Shown here: one piece after another, positions 8,821 to 36,994 of the stretch | Numbering within the stretch: position 1 is the first letter of the stretch | Layout of the letters: each line of letters starts with the position of its first letter | Source of the DNA: Candidatus Woesearchaeota archaeon | GTDB lineage: Archaea > Nanobdellota > Nanobdellia > SCGC-AAA011-G17 > GW2011-AR18 | Length of the DNA: 37,391 bases | Direction: 5' to 3' | Assembly (NCBI GenBank): GCA_018303515.1 | Contig: JAGVXZ010000025.1 | Coordinates: 1 to 37,391 of the forward strand | Program-made: the position numbers and the translations under genes | Notes under the pieces: model-generated | Told to the model about the DNA's origin: nothing | Database searches by the model: none | The model's input: the letters and a program-made list of their open reading frames with translations, nothing else

Positions 8821-8821
8821 A

Positions 8822-12586: not shown

Positions 12587-12638
12587 AAAGTAAGATCAAT
12601 ACCACAAAGCATATAAAACATACTAAATCAAAAAATTC

Positions 12639-16060: not shown

Positions 16061-16109
16061 AAAAATTTTACATAAAACAAACCTATCACTCCAAACAATA
16101 AACTTGAAA

Positions 16110-16670: not shown

Positions 16671-16727
16671 ATAAATTTTAAAATTAACAATTGTTTATAA
16701 CCTTTATTGTTATTGGAAATTTAAGAT

Positions 16728-18004: not shown

Positions 18005-18134
18005 ACAAACAGATATATAAATGTTCTGTTTATGGGATGAAGTTATATCCCTTAAGTTAGATGAGCCATAATTTCTAAAGGTTTAAAATCTTCAATTTTG
18101 TGTAACTTAACATCTTTTTGAATTTTTTTTAAAC

Positions 18135-18713: not shown

Positions 18714-18808
18714 AAACAAAAGAGAATTAATTTATTTATATCTTTTATTGTATTTTAGTTTTACTTAATTTCAAAGGGTATATTAATCTATTGTAACTTA
18801 ACAAATTT

Positions 18809-19838: not shown

Positions 19839-20336
19839 TCAAGCAATTTTCCTCATACTAATTTTATTCTTCTCTTCCAAACTCATTTCAGCAAAAGTTT
19901 TACTGAAATCAGAAGGCTGGAATATAGAGTCCCATCCAAAACCATTTTCACCTCTGGGTAAAACAATTTTTCCTTCAATTACACCTTCAAAATACTTAAT
20001 ATTTTCACCATCAGTATAACCAATAGTACATTTAGCCCAAGCTTTATTGTTTCCATATTTAGAAACGAGTTCACTTAACCCACTATACCCAATACTCTTT
20101 CCAAACCACTTAATTAAAGTTCCAGGCAATCCATTCAAACATTCAATTTCAAGTGTAATATCGTCGACAATAAGTTTGCCTTTAACTTTTTTCATTGCCT
20201 CTTTTAATTTATGTTCGATAACTTCTTTAGAACTTAAACTTTGGATTTCCTCAAGTTCAATCTCATAACCCTTTATTAAAGGAAATATTTCTTGTGCTTC
20301 CATTAATTTTTCTTTATTGCCTGTTAAAAATTTCAT
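19839..20336 (-). CDS. rdgB: non-canonical purine NTP pyrophosphatase (ITPase, RdgB/HAM1 family)
   Basis: 165 aa with FLTGNKEKL, VDDITLEIECLNGLPG, GFGWDSIFQP and EEKNKISMR. It overlaps guaB by 4 nt. Confidence 0.85.
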   Translation of the reverse strand: MKFLTGNKEKLMEAQEIFPLIKGYEIELEEIQSLSSKEVIEHKLKEAMKKVKGKLIVDDITLEIECLNGLPGTLIKWFGKSIGYSGLSELVSKYGNNKAWAKCTIGYTDGENIKYFEGVIEGKIVLPRGENGFGWDSIFQPSDFSKTFAEMSLEEKNKISMRKIA

Positions 20337-21856: not shown

Positions 21857-24139
21857 TTAATAATCAAACAAACTTTTCTGTTTTCCTTCAATTAAACTCT
21901 CAAAATTCGTATCAAAGAAACAAAGCACAGAATCTGCAATAGGTTTTATTTGTTTCTCAATATAATGTTTATAATCTAAATCATGCCTTATATCTTGAAT
22001 AGGTTCTGGCCCATCTGTCGTAATTACATATTCTATTAAATTGCTCTCAAGAACTTTCAATTTTCTAGCCGCTTTAACATGTGGTGGAGAAGTTTTAGTA
22101 TAATCACTCAAATCCTTTCTTATCTGTTTTTTATAAATTAATTTCTCATCTAATTTTCCTTTTATAATCTTATCTACAAATTTCTTAACAAATACATCAA
22201 CTTCTTCTTTCTCAAAAACTTTTTTTAAAAGTTCTTGCTGAAATTCTTTTGCTGCTTCCGTCCAATCACCACGAACTGATTCTAATCCCACAGTCTCAAG
22301 TTTTCCATTCACTAATCCAGCATATCTTTTCTTTGCACCTTTTTCTCTTCCTCTTAATTTTGGCATTAAAAACCGGGAATAAACTTTTTCAAATTCCATT
22401 TCAAGTATAGAATTTCTTTTATATTTTTCTTTTACATATTTTTTATAATATTTATTTATTTCTTCTCGTAATCTAGTTCCAATTTTTTCAGCATCTTTCA
22501 AATTTTTCGCATTTGAAACTACAAAGAAACTATCAGTGTCATTATAGATTATTTTATAGCCTAAATTCTCAATAACTTTGTCAGTTAATTTAATAATATA
22601 ATGCCCAAAATGTGTTATTGCATTTGCAATAGATGGATTATAAAATCTACAATTGGGCGAAGCCAAAACACCATACATTGAATTCAATTGTATTTTAAGA
22701 GCATATCTTGTTAATTCATCTTTTTTCTTTTTTGCCTCATCTCTTTCTTTCCAAATTTTTTCTAATAAAATTGGCATTATTCCATCTTCATTTCTGAAAC
22801 AAGCACCATTAGGTGCTTTAATCATATCCAATTTACAATTTTCAACATAAGAATAAGGATCTATATTAAAAGTCCTCATAATAGAGGGATAAAGAGATTT
22901 AAAATCCAATACAATAATATTATCATAAATGCCAGGTATTGGATCTTTAACATATCCACCTGTGGTTCTTATCTCCATACCTTTATAACTCAAGGTTGGG
23001 CAGACTACTCTTCTGCTCATAGCTTCTTTAATATATAAGAAATCCAAAGCAGCAATAGAACCATTAACCCTTTCTAAAGGTAAACCTGTAATAATTGATT
23101 TTTTAATATTTAATTCTAAAACCTTAGATTTATATAAAAGTTCATAAACTAACTCAGCATCTCTTAAATTATAATTTACTAACTTTTGTTGATCTTTTTC
23201 ATAATACTCCTGAATTTTATAACCTCTTCCAGATCCAGTTAATAGTTTCCCATAACCTAAAACTTTTTGGGACGCAGTTTCAAGTTTATAATCCTGTAGA
23301 TCAATAAAAGAATTTCTTAACAGATGCATCCCATCTAAACAAGCTCTTCCGGTTACATACGCTGTTGAACTTTTAATAAAACTTGATTCTAATCTTAATT
23401 TTACCTGTGAATTGTCCCTTCCTAAAAGAAATGGGATTTTATTTTCTTTGAATCTTTCCTTAAGAAAAGCCATATCTAAATCAATAAAATTCCATCCAGT
23501 TAAAACATCTGGATCAATCTCAAGAACTTTTTCTTTAAATTTTTCTAACATCTCAGATTCATTTTTACAACTCACTGCATTTTTCAGTTTCTTCTCTGAA
23601 ACTATAAATACTTTCTTAAACTCTTCAGAATAAATTGAAACACATAGTATTTTAGTTCCTTCCAAATCAAGTTCAATATCAAAAGATAAAACTTTCAAAT
23701 TTGGAATATATTCACAAGAATCTATTATTGGATTTTTATAAACTCTATCAACGTAATCATTACTTTCATATTCTCCATTAATTTCAATACAACCTTGTAG
23801 TTTATTATCAATCAAAAATCTATAAGCAAATTTAATATCAGCTTCATAACAATCTATTTTTCCTTTAATTAGTTTTTCTCTTAAAGGTGGAACTTCAGAA
23901 GGTAGATTAACTAAAACTTTCACAACTTCTTCATTATCAAAATTTTTAAAATTACATTTCTGAATCTCAAATTCTCCATAGTTTAAAGCCTTTTTTTGTT
24001 CATTTCTTTTAATATAAAAATAAGGTTTCTGTTCATTAATTGTAACAAAACTTTCACCATTTTCTAATTTTCCAAATAAGAAAACATAAGCTTTATCATT
24101 TACTATTCTATAAGTAGGATCTATAACAAAACCTTTCAT
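21857..24139 (-). CDS. polB: family-B DNA polymerase
   Basis: 760 aa with exonuclease motifs SFDIELD and YNLRDAEL. Polymerase motifs are DFKSLYPSIM, KIQLNSMYGVL and YNDTDSFF. Confidence 0.95.
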   Translation of the reverse strand: MKGFVIDPTYRIVNDKAYVFLFGKLENGESFVTINEQKPYFYIKRNEQKKALNYGEFEIQKCNFKNFDNEEVVKVLVNLPSEVPPLREKLIKGKIDCYEADIKFAYRFLIDNKLQGCIEINGEYESNDYVDRVYKNPIIDSCEYIPNLKVLSFDIELDLEGTKILCVSIYSEEFKKVFIVSEKKLKNAVSCKNESEMLEKFKEKVLEIDPDVLTGWNFIDLDMAFLKERFKENKIPFLLGRDNSQVKLRLESSFIKSSTAYVTGRACLDGMHLLRNSFIDLQDYKLETASQKVLGYGKLLTGSGRGYKIQEYYEKDQQKLVNYNLRDAELVYELLYKSKVLELNIKKSIITGLPLERVNGSIAALDFLYIKEAMSRRVVCPTLSYKGMEIRTTGGYVKDPIPGIYDNIIVLDFKSLYPSIMRTFNIDPYSYVENCKLDMIKAPNGACFRNEDGIMPILLEKIWKERDEAKKKKDELTRYALKIQLNSMYGVLASPNCRFYNPSIANAITHFGHYIIKLTDKVIENLGYKIIYNDTDSFFVVSNAKNLKDAEKIGTRLREEINKYYKKYVKEKYKRNSILEMEFEKVYSRFLMPKLRGREKGAKKRYAGLVNGKLETVGLESVRGDWTEAAKEFQQELLKKVFEKEEVDVFVKKFVDKIIKGKLDEKLIYKKQIRKDLSDYTKTSPPHVKAARKLKVLESNLIEYVITTDGPEPIQDIRHDLDYKHYIEKQIKPIADSVLCFFDTNFESLIEGKQKSLFDY

Positions 24140-24370: not shown

Positions 24371-24741
24371 CATTTTCAACCAGCAGACGAGCCTTTGCTA
24401 CGTTTTGTGTTTGAGAATTCTGCATATCGAGAAGAACTAAAGCAGTTCAAAAAGAAACTATGGCTCCCCAAGCCAGAATTATTGCTTGCCACAAAATAAA
24501 TGCTTTAAAGTACAGGGATAAAGAGCATAAGAAAATCAAAGACTTGTGCGATATTTTTGTGTTGTTATGGTCTTCTGAAGAAAAACCGCAAGAATTGAAA
24601 AAGAAAATAGTGCAATTTGTTACGACTGAGGAAATTCATGCTTCTATATCAATCATTAACGAAGATGATTATCAAAAAACCAGCCAACAATTGAATCATA
24701 GTGTTGAAGAAATACGAAGGGTAATTGAATTATTGAGTTGA
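24371..24741 (+). pseudogene. 5'-truncated, frameshifted remnant of a nucleotidyltransferase-family gene
   Basis: The frame 24371..24499 reads HFQPADEPLLRFVFENSAYREELKQFKKKLWLPKPELLLATK-stop. The track ORF 24460..24741, in the -1 frame, continues ...KINALKYRDKEHKKIKDLCDIFVLLW.... One extra A in the A4 run 24493..24496 would join them as PELLLATKINALKYRDKEHKKIKDLCDI. That joined sequence has the same C-terminal motif as the NTase at 16728..17372. No N-terminal NTase half is present. Confidence 0.45.
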
Positions 24742-24840: not shown

Positions 24841-25081
24841 CTATTCTTTAACAACAACTTTAAACTTCTTAGAAAGTCCCATACAAGGTTTAACAATTTC
24901 ATAATTCTTTAACTTCTTTTCTTCAGCCCATTTCCTAGCACTCTCTTCACTAGAAAATGATTTTGTTTTATTCCTGGGCCTTCTAAATCCACCAAAACTT
25001 GTAGAAATCAGTTTAAATCTTAAAACATTTTTAAACCTTTCTAATATATTTTCAACAAGAGAAATTCTTTTTAATAATCAT
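24841..25081 (-). pseudogene. possible frameshifted small gene (about 79 aa if repaired)
   Basis: A minus-strand frame is open for 78 codons (24844..25077, stop at 24841..24843). It reads ...LVENILERFKNVLRFKLISTSFGGFRRPRNKTKSFSSEESARKWAEEKKLKNYEIVKPCMGLSKKFKVVVKE, but has no start codon. The ATG at 25081 is in another frame (MIIKKNFSC-stop). Losing one A from the A5 run (25068..25072) would fuse them. Only 24 bp separate it from the dNK start, so it may be non-functional. Confidence 0.25.
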
Positions 25082-25105: not shown

Positions 25106-25897
25106 ATGGCAATTTCAGGTGGCATAGCAGGTATCATGGGCAACATAGGTGCTGGTAAAAGTACTTTAGCTAATTTTCTTCAATCTAAAAGAGGTTTAGA
25201 AATCCTAAGAGAACATATTCCAGAAAAGATTCCAATAAGAATAATTAACGAACCAACTGATCCTTATGCAAGAAAAGCATTTTATTCTGATCGGGAAAAA
25301 TATACAGACAGGTTTGAAATTTCTCAAGCTCATCTAAGAATTTTAAGACACATTTTTGCAAATAGATTTAATCTTGATGATAAAACCAAGAAAGAAGAAC
25401 CAGGTATAGTAATCTTTGATAGAACTTTAATAGAAGGTTATAGTATCTTTGGATTAAACTCTTTTGATGATGGATTCTTAACACACCGTGGTTTAGAAGA
25501 ATATAATGATTTAATAAGAAATGCCTGTGATGAATTGGGAAGAAATTTTCCAAGAGAATGTAGTTGGTTAGAGAGTACTTTATTTTATTTAGAAGTAATT
25601 GATTCGAAAATTCTTCAGAAAAGGCAATCTGAGAGAGATGATGTTGACGGAAGCGATGGTGGACAAATTCCATTAGAATATTTACAAAAAATAAATAAAA
25701 GGTATGAAGACCTTACAATAAACACGAAAGAATATTATAAAAAATTTGGATTAAGTGATCCAAAAATAATAAAGCTTAACGGTTCAATTAATATAAGAGA
25801 AAAACCAGAACATTTAGAAGAATGTGCCGACAAAATGGGAAAAAACATCTGGGAGATGGTTGAGGCTTGTTCAGATCTAAGTGGGAGATATAAATGA
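25106..25897 (+). CDS. deoxynucleoside kinase family protein (dNK/dCK/dGK fold), copy 1
   Basis: 263 aa with P-loop GNIGAGKST and the substrate-cleft pattern NEPTDPYARKAFYSD...FEISQAHLRILR. A DRS-type motif is present (FDRTLIEGYSIF), as is a lid-like KRQSERDD. Confidence 0.8.
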   Translation: MAISGGIAGIMGNIGAGKSTLANFLQSKRGLEILREHIPEKIPIRIINEPTDPYARKAFYSDREKYTDRFEISQAHLRILRHIFANRFNLDDKTKKEEPGIVIFDRTLIEGYSIFGLNSFDDGFLTHRGLEEYNDLIRNACDELGRNFPRECSWLESTLFYLEVIDSKILQKRQSERDDVDGSDGGQIPLEYLQKINKRYEDLTINTKEYYKKFGLSDPKIIKLNGSINIREKPEHLEECADKMGKNIWEMVEACSDLSGRYK

Positions 25898-26796
25898 CAC
25901 AGAATAATTTGATAGATGTAGATGAAATATTAGGTTTGGAAGATCACGAATTAATTGATAGAGATGGTGAAGCTAATGAAAGAATTAAAAGATTTTTAAA
26001 CGAAAAATTACCCGTAATCACAGTTGATGGGAATATTGGTTTTGGAAAAACAAGAATAGCTAAAACAATTGCAAAACACGGTGCGGTAATTTCATTGGAA
26101 GACGATACTGATCCCGTTCTTACTCAATTATATTATGAAGTTGGTCGTGATGTATTTGGAACTATATTACAAGCATACTTACTAGCTAAAAGAGCAGCAC
26201 AAAGTTGGGATGGTTTTTTAGAAGTAGTTTCAGGTAGACCTTTTTGTACTGACCGCTCACCATATGGGGAACTGATGTTTATTGATGCCTTAAATAAAAT
26301 TGAGGACGAAAATGGTAAAAAGAATATTGAGGATGAAGCTGCAGCAGGACTTTATAAGGCCTTTGAATTAGTATTTTCTAGAGGCAAAGAATATAAAAAT
26401 GCTTTATTAAATTACAAATCAGATTTATTAGATAGTACCCACGTTGCCAGATCAAAATTATTAAACTTTAAACAGAAAGGTGGCTCCCCTCCACCCGACA
26501 TTCTTGTTCTTTTACATGGTGATAGACAAGTTGCTTGGAATAGATTGAGTGTTAGGGGGAGAGATTACGAGGGCAGTGGAGATTCAACCCAAGGTTTACC
26601 CGAAAAATTGCATATGGCATTACATTGTGCTTATGATAATTTTGAGGAAATAGTTAGAACAAAAGGACTTTATGATGGCCAAATAATATATCTCGAACAA
26701 CCAAAAGTAAACCTTGCAACTAAAAAAGGTGAGTTAGTTTTACTAGAAAGCCTTCTTGCTTTAGAAGATAGATTAGATAACAGAAATGGATTATAA
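25894..26796 (+). CDS. deoxynucleoside kinase family protein, copy 2 (divergent, N-terminal extension)
   Basis: 300 aa with an ATGA overlap with copy 1. It has P-loop DGNIGFGKT, EDDTDPVLTQLYYE...LQAYLLAKR, TDRSPYGELMF and lid RLSVRGRDYEG. Confidence 0.75.
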   Translation: MTQNNLIDVDEILGLEDHELIDRDGEANERIKRFLNEKLPVITVDGNIGFGKTRIAKTIAKHGAVISLEDDTDPVLTQLYYEVGRDVFGTILQAYLLAKRAAQSWDGFLEVVSGRPFCTDRSPYGELMFIDALNKIEDENGKKNIEDEAAAGLYKAFELVFSRGKEYKNALLNYKSDLLDSTHVARSKLLNFKQKGGSPPPDILVLLHGDRQVAWNRLSVRGRDYEGSGDSTQGLPEKLHMALHCAYDNFEEIVRTKGLYDGQIIYLEQPKVNLATKKGELVLLESLLALEDRLDNRNGL

Positions 26797-26943
26797 CAAC
26801 TCATCTTTAAAATGTTTATTCTTCTTTTGACAAGAATTACAAACTACTTTTTTTTTACCGTTTATAATTACATAACTACCAACAATTTTTCCTAAAAAAG
26901 TCTCTTCAATCTTTTCCTTGCATAACTCACATTTTAAGGCCAT
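26791..26943 (-). CDS. 50-aa zinc-ribbon micro-protein (hypothetical)
   Basis: Not in the ORF track. My codon-by-codon translation is MALKCELCKEKIEETFLGKIVGSYVIINGKKKVVCNSCQKKNKHFKDELL-stop, containing CxxC...CxxC. TTTATATA lies about 25-30 nt upstream of the ATG, a leaderless-type geometry. It is 30 nt downstream of the TK1-like gene. Confidence 0.45.
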   Translation of the reverse strand: MALKCELCKEKIEETFLGKIVGSYVIINGKKKVVCNSCQKKNKHFKDELL

Positions 26944-26973
26944 ATCATAAAGTTAATTTAAAAATATATAAAG

Positions 26974-27837
26974 CTAATCAAATTTAGTAAATAACTCCCC
27001 ATCATTAGTTTCAATCACCATTCTCGCAACTTCATCATTAACTAAAAAGTTTAAAATCTCTTCTATGTTAGGCGTACTCTCAAATCTTCTTTTAACAGCT
27101 TCCCTCTTTCTCCCAGGATGTTCATCGACAAATTCAGCAATTTCTAAGACCTCTTCTTTGTAAGGTACTTCAAAGTGTTCTTCACATAATATAGCATATG
27201 GACTATCCCCATCCCTAATAGTTCTATCAAAATAAGGTGCTCTACTTAATCCATTCTCTACTTTACCTTCTCTATGAACCGCAACATTCCCAGAATTAGA
27301 TAAAAACCTTCCTGTATAGCTTGATTTTTTTCCACAAGGTTTTCCATTAACATCAATCATACAATAACCATGAAAAATTTCAACATTTTCAGGTCCAGCA
27401 AGTTGCATTAAATCTCCCATTGGCCCAAATGGATTTCCTCTAAAATCTAAATCTAATCCCCCAACAAGAACCGCCCTTTTTTTTCTAGCTATTCCTGTTA
27501 AAACTGTTGGTAATTCTCTATCCCAAAAATTCCCTTCGTCAACAATTAAAGTAGAAACCCTCTCCCCTCTTTCTCTCTCAAGAGTTGCAATATACCTTGG
27601 AATTTCACTGGATTTATTCAAAACTTTTGCTTGAATAATTTTTCCTGTTCTACTTCTTATTATCTCACCATGGGTAGTGTCTCTTCCGTTTATTGCACTA
27701 TTGACTGCAGCATAACCAACACTTGCATGCGAAAGATCCTGTGCAAAGGCAATTAACTCATCAGTTTTCCTTGTCCACATAGAACCAGCAAGAACATGAA
27801 CCCTCCCAACAATATCATAATAAGAAATTCTTCCCAT
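26974..27837 (-). CDS. thymidine-kinase (TK1/type II)-like protein with non-canonical Walker A and C-terminal extension
   Basis: 287 aa, colinear with TK1 blocks. HVLAGSMWTRKTDELI aligns with GPMFSGKSTELI, LIVDEGNFW with IDEAQFF, and VLVGGLDLDFRGNPFGPMGDL with GLDxDFrxxpF. The Zn/lasso region reads YCMIDVNGKPCGKKSSYTGRF...YAILCEEHF. About 65 extra C-terminal residues are present. Confidence 0.75.
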   Translation of the reverse strand: MGRISYYDIVGRVHVLAGSMWTRKTDELIAFAQDLSHASVGYAAVNSAINGRDTTHGEIIRSRTGKIIQAKVLNKSSEIPRYIATLERERGERVSTLIVDEGNFWDRELPTVLTGIARKKRAVLVGGLDLDFRGNPFGPMGDLMQLAGPENVEIFHGYCMIDVNGKPCGKKSSYTGRFLSNSGNVAVHREGKVENGLSRAPYFDRTIRDGDSPYAILCEEHFEVPYKEEVLEIAEFVDEHPGRKREAVKRRFESTPNIEEILNFLVNDEVARMVIETNDGELFTKFD

Positions 27838-28042
27838 AAAAATGCAATACTAGAAGAATATTAAAACCTTCATCAAAACTTTAAAGTGAAAACTCCTTCC
27901 AAAGAAAAAATCTCCTCTCTTTTAGTAAACCTTTTTTCATAAGATAAAATGAGTAACAAAAGCCTATAAATCTTACTCACAAAATTTTATACATGGTGTT
28001 ATACAAATACTTATAAACTTTAAAATTAATGAATCTCTATAG

Positions 28043-28891
28043 GTGGTTTTGACAAAAATAATTAGACAAAAGGTCCAAGATTTTGTATTTCAAAAGCCTA
28101 GAACAGTTCAAGAAATTTCTGAATTAATTAAAATAAATTGGAGAACTGCAGATAGATATATTGAGAGAATAGGACAAGAGGAAGGAACAATAGCTGTTCA
28201 AACTTTTAGAGAAGGAACAAGAGGGTCATTAAAAATAGTTTATTGGATCAACCAACCTCAACAACAATCTTCTAATATTCAAGAAAGACTATTTAAATTG
28301 ATAGAATCCTCAAGGCATAAGGATGATTTTTCTCCCTTTGATATTTATCAATATTTAAATGATGAAAAAAGAAGGGCTTTTATTGAAGAAGATGTTGAAA
28401 AGAGTGAGAAATATTTAGATCAGGATTTAATAGAACTAATTTTAGAAACTAAAGAACAGTTATTAATCTTTTCAGGCAATTTATCTTGGGTAAACATTGA
28501 AAAGAAAAATAAAAGTTTTCTCAGTGGATTAAAGGAACTTCTCCAAAATGGAGTTTCAGTAAAAATACTTTGTAATATCGATATTGCAAGTATTCAAAAT
28601 GTAGAAAAGGTATTAGAATTAAATTTTCATTATCCCAAAAATCCAATTGAAATAAAACATTCAGAACAACCATTAAGAGCGTTTGTAGTTGATAACAAGT
28701 TTGCAAGATTTAAAGAATCAAAACACCCACACAATTATACTTTGCTTAAGAGAAAAACTTATATTTTCTATGAAATATTAGATGATTCTTGGATTGAATG
28801 GACAAAGAGAGTATTCTGGAATTTATTTAGATCTGGGATACCTGCAGAAAAGAGAATAAAGGACATTTGGTCAATTCAAAATCTAAAATAA
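28043..28891 (+). CDS. TrmB-like transcription regulator: N-terminal wHTH plus degenerate PLD-like domain
   Basis: 282 aa with a GTG start (no in-frame ATG nearby). The wHTH is PRTVQEISELIKINWRTADRYIERIGQEEG. The later segment IEIKHSEQPLRAFVVDNKF looks like an HKD motif with K replaced by E, as in the TrmB middle domain. Confidence 0.6.
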   Translation: MVLTKIIRQKVQDFVFQKPRTVQEISELIKINWRTADRYIERIGQEEGTIAVQTFREGTRGSLKIVYWINQPQQQSSNIQERLFKLIESSRHKDDFSPFDIYQYLNDEKRRAFIEEDVEKSEKYLDQDLIELILETKEQLLIFSGNLSWVNIEKKNKSFLSGLKELLQNGVSVKILCNIDIASIQNVEKVLELNFHYPKNPIEIKHSEQPLRAFVVDNKFARFKESKHPHNYTLLKRKTYIFYEILDDSWIEWTKRVFWNLFRSGIPAEKRIKDIWSIQNLK

Positions 28892-28939
28892 ATTTTATTC
28901 AATCTAAATTATTTTAAATAGTACTTAAACAGTTAACTC

Positions 28940-30076
28940 ATGGAAGGATATGTTCTCTCATCACAAGATATAGTTTCATTAATTGATCATGGATCAATAT
29001 TTTCAGAAAATCCAATTGATCTTAAAAATAGAATCAAACCTGCAAGTTTTGAGCCCACATTTGGTTCAGAAGCATTTGAAATTACTGCCGCATTTCTTCC
29101 AGAAATTGGAAAAAATATAGAAGAACAGATTGAACGAAGATTAGTAAAAAAAATCAATCTCAGAAATAGTTATAGACTTGAAGTTGGTAAAGCCTATGTT
29201 ATTCCATTACAAGAAGGATTTGATCTTTCTGGTGAAAAAGAAATTCATGCAAAATGTAATCCAAGAAGTAGATGTGGGAGAATAGATTTTTTCTTAAGGC
29301 TACTAGTTGATGGTGTTGATTCCTATGATAAAATCCCCCTTAATTACGTTGGTAAAGCTTATGTACTAGCCATTCCCCATTCATTTCCAATTATAGCTTA
29401 TACAGGATTTCCTGGTGTTCAATTAAGATTCATGATTGGAAATCCAGAACTGTCTGATTCAGAAATAAAAAAATCAATTAATGGAAAAGATAGTTTAGAA
29501 CTTTTTAGACAAAATGGGAGTAAAATATTTTCTCCTGACGTTGGAATAAAAAAAGGTTTAATTAACACAGTTAATCTAACACCAGGAAGTTTATTGGGAT
29601 TTAAAGCAAAAAAATTTGAAGGCACAAATGAATCATGGCCAGCAATAGATTTAAAAAAAATAGGGTGGCATGATGTAAATCTTTTTTTTATTCCATTAAC
29701 AGAATCAATAAATGGTTCACTAATACTTGAACCAGATACATTTTATTTGTTTCAAACATTACAAGTGATAAAAGTCCCCGATAACTTCGCAACAGACATT
29801 GTTCCGATTGATGCAACACTGGGCGAATATAGATCACACTATGCTGGTTTTGTAGACCCGGGGTTTAATGGAACACTTACTTTAGAAGTAAGGGTTTTTT
29901 CAAGAACAGAATTAAGACATAATCAAGCTGTATGCAGGATTGTATGTGAAAAGTTAAATAAATTTACGAATATAAAATATTCTGAAATAAACTCTGCACA
30001 TTTTAACCAGAATTGGCCAAATCCAGGTGCATTTTTTAATATGAATACAATTAAAGAGTTAATAAATCAAAATTAA
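28940..30076 (+). CDS. dcd: long (two-domain) 2'-deoxycytidine 5'-triphosphate deaminase-like protein, dUTPase fold
   Basis: 378 aa. The N-terminal half reads GYVLSSQDIVSLIDHGSI...IKPASFEPTFGSEAF. The C-terminal half has the Dcd/Dut signature YAGFVDPGFNGTLTLEVRVFS...LRHNQAVCRIVCEKL. A T6 run follows the stop. Confidence 0.75.
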   Translation: MEGYVLSSQDIVSLIDHGSIFSENPIDLKNRIKPASFEPTFGSEAFEITAAFLPEIGKNIEEQIERRLVKKINLRNSYRLEVGKAYVIPLQEGFDLSGEKEIHAKCNPRSRCGRIDFFLRLLVDGVDSYDKIPLNYVGKAYVLAIPHSFPIIAYTGFPGVQLRFMIGNPELSDSEIKKSINGKDSLELFRQNGSKIFSPDVGIKKGLINTVNLTPGSLLGFKAKKFEGTNESWPAIDLKKIGWHDVNLFFIPLTESINGSLILEPDTFYLFQTLQVIKVPDNFATDIVPIDATLGEYRSHYAGFVDPGFNGTLTLEVRVFSRTELRHNQAVCRIVCEKLNKFTNIKYSEINSAHFNQNWPNPGAFFNMNTIKELINQN

Positions 30077-30204
30077 TTTTTTAATTCCACATAAAAAAAC
30101 TAGTAGTCTCATACTAAAATTCTACTACTAAAAAATAAAATGTTTGTAACAACTTGATAGTTTAAGTCCTTTTTTATATAATTATTTACTCTAAACACAA
30201 AATC

Positions 30205-30213
30205 TTTATAAAA
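30205..30213 (+). promoter_or_regulatory. TATA-box-like element of the nrdR-nrdJ promoter
   Basis: tttataaaa, followed by NrdR box 1 about 8 nt downstream. The predicted TSS, about 25 nt downstream, falls within or next to box 1. Confidence 0.45.
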
Positions 30214-30220
30214 GGGACAA

Positions 30221-30268
30221 ACACTAGATGTCTTACATTTCAAACAAATCAAACACTAGATATAGTGT
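30221..30268 (+). promoter_or_regulatory. tandem NrdR boxes
   Basis: Box 2, acactagatatagtgt (30253..30268), has perfect 6-nt inverted arms. It matches 15/16 positions of the bacterial NrdR-box consensus as I recall it (acaCwAtATaTwGtgt). Box 1, acactagatgtcttac (30221..30236), matches 10/16. The 12-mer caaacactagat is repeated exactly 32 bp apart. Confidence 0.6.
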
Positions 30269-30277
30269 ATTTACAAA

Positions 30278-30763
30278 ATGCAATGCCCATACTGTTTAAC
30301 AGAAGATACAAAAGTCCTTGAGACTAGAGAAAATGATAATTCCACAAGAAGAAGACGTGAATGTTTGAAATGTGAAAAAAGATTTACCACTTATGAAAGA
30401 GTTGAATCATTAGATATCACAGTAATAAAAAAGAATGGTTCAAAAGAATCATTTGATAGAGAAAAGTTTAAGAGAAGTTTGCTTAAGGCATGTGAAAAAA
30501 GACCTGTTACGTTAGAAGTAATAGATAAAAATGTAGACAAACTTGAAACGAAATTAAGATCTCTAAATTCCACAGAAATAAACTCAAAGTTTTTAGGGCA
30601 AATTGCCATGCGTGCATTAAAAAATATTGATAATGTGGCCTACATAAGATTTGCATCTATTTACAAAGAATTTGAAGATGTGGGTGATTATGAAAAAGAA
30701 ATTATAAAAATAAAAGGGGTAATTAAAAATGAACGAACAACAAATTCAAATACAAAAAAGTAA
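30278..30763 (+). CDS. nrdR: NrdR transcriptional repressor (Zn-ribbon + ATP-cone)
   Basis: 161 aa starting MQCPYCLTEDTKVLETR...RRRRECLKCEKRFTTYE, followed by an ATP-cone (VIKKNGSKESFDREKFKRSL...VAYIRFASIYKEF). Confidence 0.9.
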   Translation: MQCPYCLTEDTKVLETRENDNSTRRRRECLKCEKRFTTYERVESLDITVIKKNGSKESFDREKFKRSLLKACEKRPVTLEVIDKNVDKLETKLRSLNSTEINSKFLGQIAMRALKNIDNVAYIRFASIYKEFEDVGDYEKEIIKIKGVIKNERTTNSNTKK

Positions 30764-33700
30764 AATTGAATTAACTGAAAACCAATTAAAAGTTATAAAA
30801 GATAAATATCTTAAGGATTCTCCCACAGTTGAAGATTGGCTTTATGGAATTGCAACAAATGTTGCATTGGGAGATATTCTTCATATTCCTGGTGTTAATG
30901 AAAATCAAATCTTTGATGGTGTAAAAATAACAAAAGAGATTACAGAACCTATAAGGGGAAATATTTCTAAGGTTTATCTTTTTCATAAAGGAATAAATGA
31001 ATACAATATAAGGAATGATAACATTAAGAAATTTTTAGAGAATTTAAAAGAACTCGCAACTACTGATATAAAATGTAAAAATATTGTAGAAGAGACTGCA
31101 CAGAAATTTTATAATTTAATGTCTAATTTTGAATTTTTACCAAATTCTCCAACTTTAATGAATGCAGGAAGGGATTTACAACAGTTAAGTGCATGTTTTA
31201 GAGAAGATCAGCCTATAATGACTGCAAATGGAATAAAACCAATTATTGAGATTAAACAAGGCGACCGAGTTCTAACTGCTTCAGGTAATTACAAAGAAGT
31301 TACTCATGTAATGCAAAGATTTGTTGAAAGTTATAGGGTAATAGATGTATGGAAACTTCCAAATAAAACTCTGCGTGTAACAGACGAACATCCAATATTA
31401 TGTTTAGATAAAGAATCAAAAAAACCAATATGGAAATTAGCCGGTAATCTTCAAGAAGAAGATTTCGTAGCAGTTTCATACCCAAAACAAATAGTAGATC
31501 TAAAAAAATTAGAAGTAATTAATTACATGGATTCTAAATTCGTAGTTCATGAAAATAAAATATATAAATTAAATAAAGATAAAAGATGTCCAAGATATAA
31601 TAAACAAATAAAACCAGTCTATAATGAGATAGATGTGGATGCAGACCTAATGAAGATTTTTGGATATTTTTTAAGTGAAGGGGATATAGATGGAAGAGAT
31701 AGTGTGAGATTTACCTTCAATTCTGATGAATTAGAATATATGGAAGATGTAATTTATTTAATGAAAAAAAAATTTGGTTTAGGATCTAAGATTGAAAAAT
31801 CTAATTCTGGTCACTGGTCGAATGTACGCTTCCATTCAATTATTCTAGTTGGATTATTTGAAAAAATTTTAGGCAAAGGTTTCAGCAAAAAAAGGGTTCC
31901 CTCTTGGATATTAACTCTCCCAAAAGAAAAACAAAAGGGATTATTATTTGGTTTATTGAGAGGGGATGGTTATAGTTTCCAAAATCGTCACAATACAAAT
32001 ATAAAAGCAGTACTTTCAAATAAAGATTTGGTTTATTGTATTTGGGCAATATTTGCAAGATTAGGTATTTTATCATCATTCAAGAAAAATAATCTTCAAA
32101 AATTAAGTACAACTAATTCATATACTTGCCAATTAAATGGTTTTGAATCTGGGAAGCTCTTTAATGAAATATTTGTAGGGAGAGAATTTAAGGGTCTCAG
32201 CCAGTTAAATATGAGGCGTGTTAAATGCTTATGTATAGGAGAAATGTTTTATCTACCAATAAAAAATATTACCGTTGTGTTCGAACCAACCACGGTCTAC
32301 AATTTCGAGGTTGAAGGTGAACACACATACGTTGCAAATAATATTGCTGTTCACAATTGTTACGTATTGCCTGTTGAAGATTCAATTGAAGGTTGGTTAA
32401 AAGCAGTAACTTCTGCAGGAATAATTCATAAGTCTGGCGGTGGTACAGGATTTTCAGTTTCAAGAGTAAGGCCTAAAGGTTCTAATGTTAAATCTACAAA
32501 AGGTGTTGCATCAGGCCCCTTATCTCCTTTAAGGATGATAGATGGAATGACTGCAGAAATTAAACAGGGTGGGCAACGAAGGGGAGCGAACATGGGAATC
32601 TTATCAGTGCATCATCCTGATATAAAAGATTTTATTTCCATTAAAAAAACACCTGGGCAATTAGAAAATTTCAATATTTCAGTTGCAATTGACGATGAGT
32701 TTATGGAAGCAGTCAGAACAAATTCAGAGTATGATTTAATTGATCCTAACACAAATAAAGTTGTAAGAAAAGAATCTGCAAGAAAAATTTGGGATGAAAT
32801 GGTAAAGGGTGCATGGGAAACTGGAGACCCTGGCTTTGTTGTTATTGATAGAATTAATAATACAGATTCAAATCCAACTCCCCATCTAGGTTTGATTGAG
32901 TCAACTAATCCTTGCGGTGAACAACCTTTATTACCAAATGAGCCCTGTTTTGCACCCGATACATTAATTACAACAAAGGGGGGTCTAGAAACTATAGAGG
33001 GGTTATATCAAAAACAAATAAATGGTGAAAAGATTATCATTGCAACTGATAATATTGTAGATAGCAGAGTGGGAATTGAGTTTAAACCTTGTTTAGTTTC
33101 AAAAACAGGATATAAAAAAATAGTCGAAGTAAACTTAAACAACGGGCAGGAAATTAAGGTCACACCAAACCACCAGATTTTTACAACTAAAGGATGGAAA
33201 AGAGCAGAAAAATTAACAAGAGAAGATGAAGTATTTATTCAAAGTAGTTCAATATATCAAAGTGTAGACGAAGGGATCGTTTCTTCTGAAATAGTGGAAG
33301 AATCACTTCTTGGTTGGTTATGTGGTGATGGATGGTTTACGAGAGGAAAAAGATATTCGATAGGTATCTGTTTTGGACAAGAAGAAACGTTTGCACAAAA
33401 AAAATTAATTCCACTATTTAAGAAATATTTCAACTGCAACTCAAACAGTTATATTGATAAAAATGATGTGATACAAATCTCAACAGAAAAAAATTATGCA
33501 GTTGAGAAATTAATTGAATTAGGTTTAAAACCTGGAAGGGCCCCGCATAAAGAGATTCCAGATTATATTCTCACAACAAAAAAAGAAAAAATATCTAGTT
33601 ATTTAGGAGCATTATTTAGTGCAGATGGTGAAGTAAGTTTATATAGGAGGAGGGTAAGATTTACAAGTGCTTCACCTAAATTAATTAAACAAGTACAGCT

Positions 33701-35501
33701 TCTACTTTTGAATTTTGGAATTAAATCAAGGAGAAGTAAAAATTCCATAGATAAAAGAGTGTGGTATGAATTAGCTATTAATGGTGAAAGCTATAATATT
33801 TATGCTAAAGAGATAGGATTTCCTCTTGCTCCAAGAAAACAAGAGCTAATGAATATAAGAAATGTACAGATAAGAAGAAAAAAAGAACAAAAATATAGCA
33901 AAGTTTTATCTGTTAGAGAGGTGGGATTTTCTGATGTATATGATATTACCGAACCAGAAACACATTCATTAATTGCTAATGGAATGGTTGTGCATAACTG
34001 CAATCTTGGTTCAATAAATTTGTCTAAATTTATTCGGAAAGATGGATCTGATTTTGATTGGGAGAGATTAAAAGATTGTGTCTGGAACACTACTCATTTT
34101 TTAGACAATGTAATTGAAGTTAACAACTATCCTTTAGAAGAGATCGAAGAAATTTCTAAAAAAAATAGAAGAATTGGTTTAGGTGTAATGGGGTGGGCAG
34201 AATCATTAGTAATATTAAACTTACCTTACAATTCTCAAGGAGCATTAGATAAAGCAGAAAAAGTAATGCATTTTATTAATGATAATTGTTTGTTTGCTTC
34301 AATTGAATTGGGAAATAAAAGGGGAATCTTTTTTAACTACAGAAATTCAATCTTCGATCCTGACGGTGAACATTTTAGAGGCCATGATCTAAAACCTAGG
34401 AATTGTGCAAGAACAACAATTGCTCCAACAGGGACAATTGGAATTACTGCTGGTTTGCAAGGTGCTGGTATTGAACCTTTTTTTGCAATTGCTTATACAA
34501 GATATAATGCAAAAGGAATTGATTGTTTAAAAGAAGGAAAAACCCCACCTGCAGAATGTACATTCTGGGAGATAAATCCTTTATTTAAAGAAATAGCAAA
34601 GAAAAATAATTTCTTCGGATTAAAAGAAGAAGAGTTATGGAAAAAAGTTGAAAAAAATCATAAATCTGTAAAGGGTATTGAAGAAATACCAGAAAAAATT
34701 CAAGATATTTTTTTAACTTCACACGACTTAGAGCCTAAAGATCATATTTTAATGCAAGCAGCATTCCAAAAATACACTAACAATGCAGTTTCTAAAACAA
34801 TTAATTTAAGAAATGAAGCTACAATTGAAGATGTTGAAGAATGTTACATGCTGGCTTACGATAATGGTTGTAAAGGTGTAACAATTTATAGGGATGGTTC
34901 AAAACAATTTCAGGTACTTAATTTATCTGATAAAAAAGTTGAAAAAAAAGAAGAAACAAAAATAATTTATCAACCAAAAATAAGGATTGGTAAAGGTGAA
35001 GCCGAATTATCAACTTATTACAAAGTTCCTACAGGTTATGGAGATCTACATATGCACATAAATTATGATGACGAAGGTCCATTAAGAATCTTTGCGAACA
35101 TTTCACCAACAGGAACTGAAGTATCAGGCTTGACTTGTGTTATTGGAATTTTATTATCTAAATATTTTGAATATGGTGGAGATCCAATTAAAGTGTTGAA
35201 ACATTTAAATTCTATAAAAGGTGATAAACCATATGGATTTGGTACAAAGAGAATAGACTCAATTCCACATGCAATGGCACAAGCATTAAGGGATCATTTA
35301 ATTAAAACAGGTAAATTGGCAATTAAAGTTGGCGGTGATGCTACACAAAAAGATGATAAGAAACAGTTAAGATTAGATGTTGAAGGTCACAAAGCAACGA
35401 TATCAATCTACTGCCCACAATGTTACAGCTCAAATGTAGAAATGGTTTCAGGTTGTTCTGAACCAACCTGCTTTGATTGTGGTTTTTCAAAATGTAGTTA
35501 G
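30729..35501 (+). CDS. nrdJ: class II (adenosylcobalamin-dependent) ribonucleotide reductase with two inteins
   Basis: 1590-aa precursor, 851 aa after removing the inteins. Extein motifs are PNSPTLMNAG...QLSA|CYVLPVEDS, STNPCGEQPLLPNEP|CNLGSINL, and a C-terminal Cys-rich tail (CPQC...CSEPTCFDCGFSKC). GGGGT lies 8 nt upstream of the ATG. The start overlaps nrdR by 35 nt. Confidence 0.95.
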   Translation: MNEQQIQIQKSKIELTENQLKVIKDKYLKDSPTVEDWLYGIATNVALGDILHIPGVNENQIFDGVKITKEITEPIRGNISKVYLFHKGINEYNIRNDNIKKFLENLKELATTDIKCKNIVEETAQKFYNLMSNFEFLPNSPTLMNAGRDLQQLSACFREDQPIMTANGIKPIIEIKQGDRVLTASGNYKEVTHVMQRFVESYRVIDVWKLPNKTLRVTDEHPILCLDKESKKPIWKLAGNLQEEDFVAVSYPKQIVDLKKLEVINYMDSKFVVHENKIYKLNKDKRCPRYNKQIKPVYNEIDVDADLMKIFGYFLSEGDIDGRDSVRFTFNSDELEYMEDVIYLMKKKFGLGSKIEKSNSGHWSNVRFHSIILVGLFEKILGKGFSKKRVPSWILTLPKEKQKGLLFGLLRGDGYSFQNRHNTNIKAVLSNKDLVYCIWAIFARLGILSSFKKNNLQKLSTTNSYTCQLNGFESGKLFNEIFVGREFKGLSQLNMRRVKCLCIGEMFYLPIKNITVVFEPTTVYNFEVEGEHTYVANNIAVHNCYVLPVEDSIEGWLKAVTSAGIIHKSGGGTGFSVSRVRPKGSNVKSTKGVASGPLSPLRMIDGMTAEIKQGGQRRGANMGILSVHHPDIKDFISIKKTPGQLENFNISVAIDDEFMEAVRTNSEYDLIDPNTNKVVRKESARKIWDEMVKGAWETGDPGFVVIDRINNTDSNPTPHLGLIESTNPCGEQPLLPNEPCFAPDTLITTKGGLETIEGLYQKQINGEKIIIATDNIVDSRVGIEFKPCLVSKTGYKKIVEVNLNNGQEIKVTPNHQIFTTKGWKRAEKLTREDEVFIQSSSIYQSVDEGIVSSEIVEESLLGWLCGDGWFTRGKRYSIGICFGQEETFAQKKLIPLFKKYFNCNSNSYIDKNDVIQISTEKNYAVEKLIELGLKPGRAPHKEIPDYILTTKKEKISSYLGALFSADGEVSLYRRRVRFTSASPKLIKQVQLLLLNFGIKSRRSKNSIDKRVWYELAINGESYNIYAKEIGFPLAPRKQELMNIRNVQIRRKKEQKYSKVLSVREVGFSDVYDITEPETHSLIANGMVVHNCNLGSINLSKFIRKDGSDFDWERLKDCVWNTTHFLDNVIEVNNYPLEEIEEISKKNRRIGLGVMGWAESLVILNLPYNSQGALDKAEKVMHFINDNCLFASIELGNKRGIFFNYRNSIFDPDGEHFRGHDLKPRNCARTTIAPTGTIGITAGLQGAGIEPFFAIAYTRYNAKGIDCLKEGKTPPAECTFWEINPLFKEIAKKNNFFGLKEEELWKKVEKNHKSVKGIEEIPEKIQDIFLTSHDLEPKDHILMQAAFQKYTNNAVSKTINLRNEATIEDVEECYMLAYDNGCKGVTIYRDGSKQFQVLNLSDKKVEKKEETKIIYQPKIRIGKGEAELSTYYKVPTGYGDLHMHINYDDEGPLRIFANISPTGTEVSGLTCVIGILLSKYFEYGGDPIKVLKHLNSIKGDKPYGFGTKRIDSIPHAMAQALRDHLIKTGKLAIKVGGDATQKDDKKQLRLDVEGHKATISIYCPQCYSSNVEMVSGCSEPTCFDCGFSKCS
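31194..32357 (+). mobile_element. intein 1 (388 aa) with LAGLIDADG homing-endonuclease domain
   Basis: It begins CFREDQPIMTANG (block A) and contains LRVTDEHPIL (block B). LAGLIDADG motifs are KIFGYFLSEGDIDG and LLFGLLRGDGYS. It ends VYNFEVEGEHTYVANNIAVHN, followed by Cys+1. Both boundaries are in frame. Confidence 0.9.
32946..33998 (+). mobile_element. intein 2 (351 aa) with LAGLIDADG homing-endonuclease domain
   Basis: It begins CFAPDTLITTKGG and contains IKVTPNHQIFT. LAGLIDADG motifs are LLGWLCGDGWF and YLGALFSADGEV. It ends VYDITEPETHSLIANGMVVHN, followed by Cys+1. Confidence 0.9.
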
Positions 35502-35565
35502 AGATACATACTAAGATTGAAAATAAATTGAATCCAATTACCAATAATGATTTCAAAAGTTAAAC

Positions 35566-35595
35566 AGAGAAATTTATTCTCTTTATTCTTTTTTG
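35566..35595 (+). terminator. hairpin plus T-tract downstream of nrdJ
   Basis: agagaa-attta-ttctct (6-bp stem) followed by ttattcttttttg. Archaeal termination at oligo-T is established, but the role of the hairpin here is inference. Confidence 0.35.
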
Positions 35596-35649
35596 AATGT
35601 TTATTTGGTCAACAATAAAATATATAAAGAACTTAGGAATTAACAAAAT

Positions 35650-35967
35650 ATGACTGTTAAAGAAATCAATTCCTCAAACTTTAAAGAAGAAGTTTTGAAT
35701 TCTAAGAAGCCTGTAGTAATTGATAATTTTGCTGTTTGGTGTGGTCCATGCCAATCAATGAAACCCATTTTTAAAGAATTATCTGAAGAGATGAAAGAAA
35801 TTAAATTTGTTTCTGTTGATGTTGATGAATCTGGGGATATCGCGACTCAATATGGAGTAAGAAGTATCCCAACATTTATTCTATTAAAAAATGGAAAAGT
35901 AATAACCCAATTTGTAGGTGGAATGTCAAAAGCTCAACTTAAAGAAAAGATTAAATCTAATCTATAA
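35650..35967 (+). CDS. trxA: thioredoxin
   Basis: 105 aa with the WCGPC active site and RSIPTFILLKNGK. It lies directly downstream of nrdJ. Confidence 0.9.
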   Translation: MTVKEINSSNFKEEVLNSKKPVVIDNFAVWCGPCQSMKPIFKELSEEMKEIKFVSVDVDESGDIATQYGVRSIPTFILLKNGKVITQFVGGMSKAQLKEKIKSNL

Positions 35968-36994
35968 TTTCCGTTTTTATTTTTTCTAAATCACAAAAAT
36001 CGGTTGTAAAATTATAAGCTCCAGCATTAAGAAAAGTTAATTTATTTCCTATCTTTGGATTTTCCAAATAAACTCTATATCTAAACAAATCCATTGAACA
36101 AGGTGTTATCCCCTTTATCACATAAGGATCTCCATCATCTTTAGAAAGTTCACCCTCAACTAACAATTTTACTGGCACTATTAATGCATCCATATCGGTA
36201 TTATAAACAGAAGCATCTACAATAATATTCTTCTCATAAATACCAATTATTTCAGTTTCAAGTTTAACTGCTGAAGCAGCAATGAACCTTCCCGGTTCTA
36301 TGATTAATTTTATTTCTCCTAATAATTCTTTGAACTTCTTTATCTTATTAAATATTATATCAATCACATCAACATTAGTATTTGCATATTCAGAGGGTAA
36401 TCCTCCACCAATACAAACTAAATCAATTTTCACATTTTTCTCTAAAATATTTTTCATTTCAGAAGTATAATCCCATTCACTAATATTCTGGGTTTTTCTA
36501 TGGAAATGAATCCCCAGTTTATCTATATTCTTATTATTTCTTAATTCCCTTAATTTTTTATTCACTGTCTCTGAATTCATCCCGAATACAAAATATTTTT
36601 CAGTTCGTAAAGTATTTTCTTTAAGTTTAATTCTTAATAACAAATTTATTTGTCCAAAAATCTCATAAATATTCCCATTTAAAAATTGAATTAAAATATT
36701 CAAATCACTTTCATTATCAACTACAAACCATCTTATTTTATGTTCTAATAATCCTTGAATTAATTCTTCATCCCACGCTTGAGCTAAAAATATAACCCTT
36801 GATTTATCTTTAATATTTTTAAGTTCATTAACCATATGTAGACTAAACATAGAATCTGTATTTTCTTCTAACACCTTTGAGATTAAAGGATTTGTTTTAG
36901 AACTATATGAAACAAACTCACATAAAGATTTAATTTTTTTATACTGTTCAATTACTTTCGATTTTGATAGAATGAATTTAGACTTACTTTGCAT
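35957..36994 (-). CDS. PLP-dependent decarboxylase, Orn/DAP/Arg decarboxylase (alanine-racemase fold) family
   Basis: 345 aa with PLP-Lys context YSSKTNP, plus GIHFH, IGGGLPSEY, EPGRFIAASA, ITPCSMDLF and NAGAYNF. Substrate cannot be assigned by eye. Confidence 0.75.
   Translation of the reverse strand: MQSKSKFILSKSKVIEQYKKIKSLCEFVSYSSKTNPLISKVLEENTDSMFSLHMVNELKNIKDKSRVIFLAQAWDEELIQGLLEHKIRWFVVDNESDLNILIQFLNGNIYEIFGQINLLLRIKLKENTLRTEKYFVFGMNSETVNKKLRELRNNKNIDKLGIHFHRKTQNISEWDYTSEMKNILEKNVKIDLVCIGGGLPSEYANTNVDVIDIIFNKIKKFKELLGEIKLIIEPGRFIAASAVKLETEIIGIYEKNIIVDASVYNTDMDALIVPVKLLVEGELSKDDGDPYVIKGITPCSMDLFRYRVYLENPKIGNKLTFLNAGAYNFTTDFCDLEKIKTEIID

Follow-up and report, generated by a model that had tools for sequence, protein, structure and literature searches.

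We examined a 37-kb stretch of DNA from a Candidatus Woesearchaeota archaeon (hereafter the window), in which nine consecutive genes at positions 25106–35967 form a cluster devoted largely to deoxynucleoside triphosphates (dNTPs). The genes encode two deoxynucleoside kinases (dNK1 and dNK2), a 50-amino-acid (aa) protein (sORF50), a member of the thymidine kinase 1 (TK1) family (here TK), a protein with a predicted winged helix–turn–helix (wHTH) and phospholipase D (PLD) fold (P4), a two-domain dCTP deaminase (Dcd), the repressor NrdR, a ribonucleotide reductase (RNR) with two inteins (NrdJ) and a thioredoxin (Trx). Profile searches assigned the families, and seven of the nine are dNTP genes, as an earlier reading of the sequence (the original prediction) had proposed; its coordinates for open reading frames (ORFs) all match the ORF table, and the ninth gene, sORF50, is one that it had overlooked. 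If the genome is assumed to hold 800–1200 genes, 10–20 of them of this kind, the probability of finding seven among nine consecutive genes by chance is <1e-7. The cluster is also larger than first described, with genes for a Ham1/ITPase, an IMP dehydrogenase (IMPDH) and the DNA polymerase PolB directly at its left. The window is a segment of a Woesearchaeota (DPANN) chromosome and not a mobile element; its GC content is about 29%, it holds ordinary chromosomal genes (Lhr helicase, Ogg, superoxide dismutase (SOD), peroxiredoxins and a CopA cluster), and identical proteins are present on groundwater-type assemblies in ENA. The loci with which it was compared are labelled L002, L008–L012 and L031.

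The leftmost genes of the cluster, dNK1 (25106–25897, +) and dNK2 (25894–26796, +), encode divergent paralogues of one kinase family. dNK1 matches PF01712 at 65.7 bits (cut-off 27) and carries the P-loop GNIGAGKS, the catalytic Glu in NEP, the DRT motif as FDRT and the lid KRQSER..IPLEYL. It aligns with human dCK over its full length (E 3e-5), and an identical protein bears the NCBI name 'deoxynucleoside kinase [Candidatus Woesearchaeota archaeon]'. dNK2 reaches 34.0 bits against the same cut-off, over profile positions 1–97 only (the N-terminal half); it has the P-loop GNIGFGKT, the motifs LED and DRS, the lid RLSVRGRDYE and a 40-aa N-terminal extension. Because the start of dNK2 overlaps the stop of dNK1 by 4 bp, the two genes probably form one operon; dNK2 did not arise from dNK1 by recent duplication. 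No homologue of dNK1 turned up when 5.8 billion protein clusters were searched by word index, and full-text literature searches yielded no paper on DPANN deoxynucleoside kinases. In the dNK1 orthologue at L011, from a Ca. Woesearchaeota metagenome-assembled genome (MAG), LDTT replaces FDRT, with loss of the Arg of the DRT motif.

The salvage sets of Firmicutes and Mollicutes combine tandem dNK genes (dAK/dGK in Lactobacillus, dck-dgk in Bacillus) with a TK1-type Tdk. The window resembles them in having two adjacent, divergent genes of the dNK family and one of the TK1 family, which together would cover the four deoxynucleosides. It differs from them in its archaeal and extremely divergent kinases, whose genes lie together with those for Dcd, RNR and PolB, and in a TK with a variant P-loop and an additional domain at its C-terminus.

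The TK gene (26974–27837, −) encodes what we call a long TK1, with a match to PF00265 (60 bits, cut-off 20.6), a zinc lasso and a C-terminal domain at about aa 227–283. Its predicted model (predicted local distance difference test score (pLDDT) 88.8, predicted template-modelling (pTM) score 0.85) has TK1 structures as its top Foldseek matches, with target-normalised TM-scores of 0.8–0.9 to bacterial TK1, and the C-terminal domain is modelled as a winged-helix-like H-H-H-E-E unit whose confidence is low past residue 268. The Walker A motif reads GSMWTRKT, compared with GPMYSGKS in 1XX6, and so departs from the canonical GxxxxGK[ST]: Arg stands in place of the second Gly (G→R, position 23), with Lys24 and Thr25 retained. 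The nearly invariant catalytic Glu101 lies in VDEGNFW, and the substrate motif DFRG lies in GLDLDFRGNPFGPM. Across an alignment of the subfamily, the P-loop Lys and the zinc ligands C159 and C168 are invariant, and C218 is nearly so.

Only one close homologue of TK, 77% identical, was found by the word-indexed search of the 5.8 billion protein clusters, and its P-loop is the same GSMWTRKT. Between the two genes, the Nei–Gojobori ratio of nonsynonymous to synonymous substitution rates (dN/dS) is 0.147 (proportions of differing sites pN 0.136 and pS 0.556) and 0.146 for the core, values that are approximate because dS is about 1, near saturation. TK is under purifying selection. A full HMMER search of 1.84 billion representatives recovered further proteins of 293–400 aa that align with TK over both its core and its C-terminal extension, and the named ones are from Woesearchaeota. 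Of 31 long forms, 19 have Gly as the residue preceding the P-loop Lys and 12 have R, A, L, N, D or E; among the HMMER matches that yielded the long forms, 13 of the 110 short TK1s likewise depart from Gly. The 'broken' Walker A of the original prediction thus comes down to one Gly→Arg exchange, and the adjective is too strong for a motif that keeps its Lys and Thr, recurs unchanged in a constrained homologue and varies at this position across the subfamily. We conclude that TK is a TK1 derivative, folded and under constraint, in whose P-loop a single residue is unusual. Full-text literature searches yielded no description of the long-TK1 subfamily, which appears to have gone undescribed so far.

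At the right of the cluster, nrdR (30278–30763, +) encodes a zinc-ribbon and ATP-cone repressor (PF22811 and PF03477; TIGR00244, 175 bits, cut-off 124.65). It overlaps by 35 bp the gene for NrdJ (30729–35501, +), a class II (adenosylcobalamin-dependent) ribonucleoside-diphosphate reductase made as a 1590-aa precursor with a TSCPD/zinc C-terminus. The expectation of an intein-laden NrdJ was borne out by two inteins with canonical junctions and Pfam matches to Hint and LAGLIDADG domains, the removal of which restores a contiguous extein. Intein 1 (31194–32357, +; aa 156–543; junctions LSA/CFRED...AVHN/CYVLP) has a LAGLIDADG endonuclease region, and intein 2 (32946–33998, +; aa 740–1090; NPCGE...NEP/CFAPD...VVHN/CNLGS), which also has a LAGLIDADG endonuclease, sits in the active-site region. 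Spliced in silico to 851 aa, NrdJ scores 638.7 bits with TIGR02504 (NrdJ_Z; cut-off 399.95) and falls short of the class I model TIGR02506 (296 bits, cut-off 341); the window genes that were scanned include no nrdB-like ORF. At L011 (4189–7858), NrdJ is called as two ORFs (434 and 726 aa), split or disrupted around the intein region. The CGPC thioredoxin gene (35650–35967, +; PF00085, 110 bits; TIGR01068, 113.6 bits, cut-off 96.8) adjoins that of NrdJ in L011, L012 and L031 as well, and its product is the likely reductant of NrdJ.

Upstream of nrdR lies an NrdR operator (30221–30268) composed of box 1, ACACTAGATGTCTTAC (30221–30236), and box 2, ACACTAGATATAGTGT (30253–30268), the starts of which are 32 bp apart. 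Box 2 matches the consensus perfectly and ends 9 bp before the nrdR ATG; box 1 is degenerate, conserved in its left half only. Each of the seven related loci that bear nrdR has paired boxes in front of it, with no pair in 389 kb of other (control) loci, and no second paired operator occurs elsewhere in the window. The arrangement resembles that of bacterial nrdR-nrd operons, in which the gene for a zinc-ribbon and ATP-cone repressor directly precedes and overlaps the RNR gene, and in which two partially palindromic 16-bp boxes have starts 31–32 bp apart. This spacing fits the two boxes with a 15–16-bp linker that are described in published work (PMC13584703, PMC9110341), one of which mentions NrdR in 'some archaea' (PMC9110341). 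Differences from the bacterial operons are the archaeal host, the intein-bearing class II RNR and the degenerate box 1. NrdR most likely controls nrdR-nrdJ only. A motif search for a regulatory signal shared across the cluster made only the NrdR boxes stand out. A single box-like sequence, TCACAAGATATAGTTT (28961–28976, +), begins 22 nt into dcd; it has two to three mismatches and no partner, L011 does not conserve the peptide encoded there, and it is probably a chance occurrence, as about one such match is expected.

Between these two ends of the cluster, Dcd (28940–30076, +) matches both domains of the two-domain family (PF06559 (DCD_N), 121.6 bits; PF22569 (DCD_C), 98.4 bits), in line with its earlier description, and retrieves the Protein Data Bank (PDB) entry 2R9Q at E 5e-46. 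The motifs RSRCGR and DPGF..TLE are conserved. With 2R9Q, the two-domain dCTP deaminase of Agrobacterium tumefaciens (PF06559), it aligns over 320 residues and shares NP[RK]S..GR[IL]D.F and HYAGF.DPGF. To our knowledge, whether the PF06559 family is mono- or bifunctional has not been established biochemically. At L012, a dCMP deaminase gene (6144–6596) occupies the slot of Dcd in an apparent non-orthologous displacement. It was rightly noted that the window has no thymidylate synthase or stand-alone dUTPase: thyA, thyX and dut were not found among the scanned window ORFs, nor in about 9 kb past its right end.

P4 (28043–28891, +; 282 aa) has no Pfam match, and the label of a wHTH/PLD-like protein given to it rests now on an AlphaFold model (pLDDT 88.6), in which an N-terminal winged helix is followed by a PLD-like domain, and on fold matches. 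Foldseek ranked TrmBL2 best (E 8e-10), followed by PLD nucleases of the Nuc, NucT and Zucchini types, at TM-scores of only 0.41–0.44. The modelled order of domains resembles that of TrmBL2, a chromatin protein of Thermococcales (PDB 5BPD), from which P4 differs in its sequence (12% identity), in its domain arrangement (root-mean-square deviation about 20 Å) and in having no Pfam TrmB match. Its 481 homologues are about 50% identical, and those with names come from Woesearchaeota, Nanoarchaeota, Nanohaloarchaea or unclassified archaeal MAGs. P4 lies between TK and Dcd only in the closer relatives of the window, with the same position in L010 and L011. A role as the dedicated regulator of the cluster was rejected, as in three other Woesearchaeota genomes the neighbours of P4 are unrelated to nucleotides; on its modelled fold we treat it as a putative general DNA-binding protein that is located here by chance.

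The short gene sORF50 (26791–26943, −), which is called on sibling contigs, encodes a conserved zinc ribbon (CxxC...CxxC) directly downstream of TK. A homologue is held by 37 further metagenome loci, seven of which have nrdR within about 1.1 kb, and in five of these seven NrdR boxes occur in the divergent intergenic region. Some sORF50 loci have an ORF of about 590 aa nearby, which in L031 and L012 is ABCE1. The candidate role of sORF50 as a TK-specific partner was rejected, since TK stands beside the homologue in none of the 37 further loci. The two gene overlaps (dNK1 with dNK2, and nrdR with nrdJ) and the 30-bp gap between TK and sORF50 suggest that the cluster is organized as three small operons.

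The genes on either side extend the neighbourhood. At the left are a Ham1/RdgB-type XTP/dITP diphosphatase (19839–20336, −; PF01725, 145 bits; TIGR00042, 129 bits, under the cut-off of 145), IMPDH for guanine nucleotide synthesis (20333–21802, −; PF00478, 439 bits; TIGR01302, 493 bits, cut-off 481.5) and the family B DNA polymerase PolB (21857–24139, −; NF004421, 747 bits, cut-off 570), which is syntenic and 68% identical in L011 and 53–55% identical in L012. The conserved right flank consists of two genes outside dNTP metabolism: a pyridoxal-phosphate-dependent decarboxylase of the Orn/Arg/DAP type (ODC; 35957–36994, −) and deoxyhypusine synthase (DS; 37002 to the window end, where it is cut, −). 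Past that end, the chromosome continues with the rest of DS, a THUMP protein, DnaJ/DnaK/GrpE and ribosomal L15e.

Gene order in relatives shows how this neighbourhood is inherited. The order in L011 is DS-ODC-Trx-NrdJ-Dcd-P4-TK-sORF50-dNK1-...-PolB, and L010, which holds the closest TK relative (35% identical), has P4-TK-sORF50-(68-aa ORF, 106-aa ORF)-dNK2-dNK1. L012 reads DS-Trx-NrdJ-NrdR-dCMP deaminase-...-ABCE1-TK-sORF50-...-PolB, and L031, with neither kinase nor Dcd, reads Trx-...-NrdJ-NrdR-...-ABCE1-sORF50-...-PolB-DS-IMPDH. The unit that the original prediction asked about thus does recur, only in related Woesearchaeota and always with core flanks (PolB, deoxyhypusine synthase), which indicates vertical inheritance and not a mobile cassette. 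Its stable backbone is the RNR module with PolB; the source of deoxyuridine nucleotides (Dcd or dCMP deaminase) and the kinases are variable. Searches for synteny anchored on Dcd were weak: single-protein scans of genome and metagenome contigs found nothing and a two-sequence alignment found L011 only, negatives of little weight because pattern-based scans reach close relatives only.

The rate of divergence differs sharply along the cluster. Identity to L011 is 86% for DS, 69–82% for the NrdJ extein, 70% for sORF50, 67% for Dcd, 65% for Trx, 63% for ODC and 61% for P4; in L010, sORF50 is 72% and P4 65% identical. The corresponding values are 51% (L011) and 48% (L010) for dNK1, 39% for dNK2 (L010; the gene is absent from L011), and 29% (L011) and 35% (L010) for TK. 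The three salvage kinases are therefore 29–51% identical to their syntenic counterparts, compared with 61–86% for their neighbours. Relaxed selection, xenologous replacement or conflict may be the cause of this fast divergence, which is probably also the reason that the kinase part had been perceived as foreign.

The composition of these genes does not bear out that perception. GC content at third codon positions (GC3) is 0.17 for dNK1, 0.19 for dNK2 and 0.20 for TK, and 0.13–0.24 for the other scanned window genes, leaving aside a decayed remnant; the distance of the kinases in codon usage from the remaining genes is unremarkable for their length, and their extra GC in codon positions 1 and 2 reflects amino-acid content. 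The claim that the kinase part is compositionally foreign is thus contradicted. That it abuts decayed genes is true in a trivial sense, since these are a toxin–antitoxin-type remnant and a population or assembly variant, outside the cluster itself. The remnant (24395–24741, +) is frameshifted, with a 93-aa ORF (24460–24741), an upstream frame and no Pfam match; the ORF, at GC3 0.32, is the sole compositional outlier. Its K..R..KD..DI motif suggests the C-terminal tail of a putative nucleotidyltransferase or toxin-type gene, and the equivalent place in L012 holds a HEPN/DUF6932 pair. The variant is the 3′ part of a conserved, basic 68-aa ORF (24841–25015, −) that is intact in L002 (5819–6025), L010 and L011; compared with L002, a sibling assembly from the same population, a 42-bp deletion has removed its start codon and 11 codons, and this deletion may be either genuine variation or an artefact of assembly.

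Taken together, we consider it probable, at roughly three in four, that the locus is a vertically inherited housekeeping neighbourhood for DNA-precursor supply in a Woesearchaeota (DPANN) archaeon, set beside PolB. Catalytic motifs are present in both dNKs, in Dcd and, bar one Gly, in TK. Cultivated nanohaloarchaea, which are also DPANN, keep only downstream and salvage enzymes of nucleotide metabolism, including thymidine kinases (PMC10266531), a pattern that fits the housekeeping interpretation. Several observations weigh against it. Two enzymes fall under their NCBIfam equivalog cut-offs: Dcd scores 228.8 bits with NF005734 (229 versus 283), which also sets it apart from 2R9Q, and the best score of TK is 87.9 bits with NF003296, versus 183. 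The P-loop of TK is without its second glycine, and in L008 and L009 a long TK1 lies among unrelated core genes. Content is patchy, with no NrdR or dNK2 in L011 and no TK, dNK or Dcd in L031. No motif common to the kinase and RNR genes was found in the window, and the divergence of the kinases is beyond what housekeeping alone explains.

Under the housekeeping interpretation, the flow of precursors can be sketched from family knowledge, applied to gene identities, operator, synteny and selection as determined in this analysis. dNK1 and dNK2 would phosphorylate imported purine and cytosine deoxynucleosides, and the long TK1 would act on thymidine and deoxyuridine. NrdJ would first splice out its two inteins and then reduce ribonucleoside diphosphates with adenosylcobalamin, with the adjacent thioredoxin as predicted reductant. 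NrdR is expected to bind the two-box operator and repress nrdR-nrdJ at a high ratio of dATP to ATP. The two-domain Dcd would convert dCTP to dUTP (or dUMP) for a thymidylate synthase presumably encoded elsewhere, Ham1 would clear dITP and XTP, and IMPDH would supply guanine nucleotides. The products may then feed the adjacent replicative PolB as the consumer of dNTPs.

Other explanations were weighed against the housekeeping interpretation. The original prediction had also raised a module of defensive or viral origin that manipulates nucleotide pools. Known antiphage defences that deplete nucleotides are of the dCTP deaminase and dGTPase types, and by analogy infection would prompt the kinases and Dcd to drain dNTP pools or unbalance them. 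Such a module would account for fast-evolving, patchily present kinases and an atypical TK P-loop, next to a decayed nucleotidyltransferase-like remnant whose place in L012 is taken by the HEPN/DUF6932 pair, and the cluster does share with these defences an enzyme of the dCTP-deaminase fold and an action on dNTP pools. However, when seven proteins were run against PADLOC at E<=0.01, Dcd, TK, dNK1 and NrdR had no match, nothing matched a nucleotide-depletion system, and the only matches, all weak, paired P4 with DrmC (E 1.8e-4) and MkoB (E 0.0078) and dNK2 with TRIP13 (E 0.0013). Dcd is of the two-domain housekeeping type of 2R9Q, without a fused sensor or kinase-like domain; the partner enzymes are anabolic, with established family functions that build dNTP pools and do not destroy them; and relatives of about 65% identity carry the segment at an unchanged chromosomal site, between PolB and NrdJ amid conserved core genes. 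With TK under purifying selection and GC3 native, we regard a defence module as very improbable and this explanation as weakly refuted. Direct searches for a viral source gave little: PHROGs gave only generic, weak family matches; tblastn against 50,697 phage records found nothing for dNK1, only ordinary TKs of about 31% identity over part of the length for TK, and for Dcd a family-level similarity of about 31% that covers only the C-terminal quarter of haloviral Dcd; and alignment scans of IMG/VR viral contigs, of limited sensitivity, found no relatives of dNK1, dNK2 or TK and one weak, partial match for Dcd. It is nevertheless conceivable that dNK1-dNK2-sORF50-TK is a viral or mobile island that was acquired horizontally into an older PolB...NrdJ backbone. 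A backbone devoid of kinases in L031, and one with TK as its sole kinase in L012, would fit this, as would the kinase identities far under those of their neighbours, the near-empty yield of the word-indexed search for dNK1 and TK, and the adjacent toxin–antitoxin-like remnant. We think an acquired island unlikely, given the native GC3 and codon usage, the phage and viral-contig results, and a long-TK1 subfamily that is itself borne by Woesearchaeota in chromosomal contexts; moreover, L010 and L011 share the positions of the kinases, so any acquisition predates those splits.

Two further alternatives concern regulation. The 'salvage-plus-reduction regulon' of the original prediction stands as a supply cluster inherited with core genes; as a regulon it finds no support, since nrdR-nrdJ is the one place with paired NrdR boxes in front of it. 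Control of the whole cluster by NrdR could appeal to a repressor and operator that are present and conserved, and to the box-like sequence at the 5′ end of dcd (28961–28976), but the sole paired operator of the window fronts nrdR, the dcd box is partnerless and of a kind expected about once by chance, and L011 retains the cluster without NrdR, which together make a single NrdR regulon improbable. For the long TK1, a different function can be imagined, that of a pseudo-kinase with a winged helix which senses thymidine or dTTP and regulates its neighbours by binding DNA. The replaced glycine before the P-loop Lys, here and more often in long forms (12 of 31) than in short ones (13 of 110), the C-terminal H-H-H-E-E domain common to the subfamily, the divergent transcription of TK from P4-dcd and the binding of dTTP by TK1 enzymes as a feedback inhibitor (known from PDB titles) are consistent with a sensor. 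Against it, the P-loop Lys is invariant and the Thr/Ser, Glu101, DFRG, C159, C168 and C218 are kept, 19 of the 31 long forms have the canonical glycine, the core evolves at a dN/dS of 0.146 under purifying selection, the motif search in the window found no target motif, and the C-terminal tail is modelled with low confidence beyond residue 268; we consider a regulator of this kind doubtful. Similarly speculative is the broader idea that the long TK1s of Woesearchaeota, with their TK1 core, frequent non-Gly residue before the P-loop Lys and winged-helix-like C-terminus, are either a new class of DNA-binding proteins that sense thymidine or dTTP, or kinases anchored to DNA or to the replisome. 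The fast divergence of the kinases would then stem from conflict and not from relaxed selection, and this conflict could involve, for example, viral inhibitors or toxic nucleoside analogues from host or virus.

Elsewhere in the window, other functions are also gathered. Copper-handling genes lie at 3509–9229 (a CopA P-type ATPase with HMA/YHS domains, a cupredoxin/4Fe-4S membrane protein, DUF411 and DUF7343 wHTH proteins), and genes against oxidative damage lie at 9708–18719 (the Ogg glycosylase, two peroxiredoxins, an Fe/Mn SOD and the Lhr helicase). A tRNA at 9482–9591 (−) was detected with Rfam at 44 bits and had no match in an ARAGORN run; at 110 nt for a model of 71 positions, its length points to a probable intron. 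At 16728–18004 (−), the gene for a DUF6036 nucleotidyltransferase and the HTH gene upstream of it overlap, in an arrangement that resembles an AbiE-like toxin–antitoxin pair. The 93-aa ORF of the remnant beside the cluster was considered as a copy of this DUF6036 gene (16728–17372), and no similarity was found.

The novelty of the locus is modest, as known families stand in an undescribed arrangement, and it reveals no new defence system. What merits attention beyond annotation is the conserved archaeal NrdR operator and the fast-evolving long-TK1 subfamily. The cluster shows how DNA-precursor supply is laid out in a DPANN archaeon with a reduced genome, beside the replicative polymerase. By bringing together kinases, a B12-dependent reductase with a bacterial-type NrdR switch, a source of deoxyuridine nucleotides and pool-cleaning enzymes, it offers candidate genes for what such symbionts take from their hosts.

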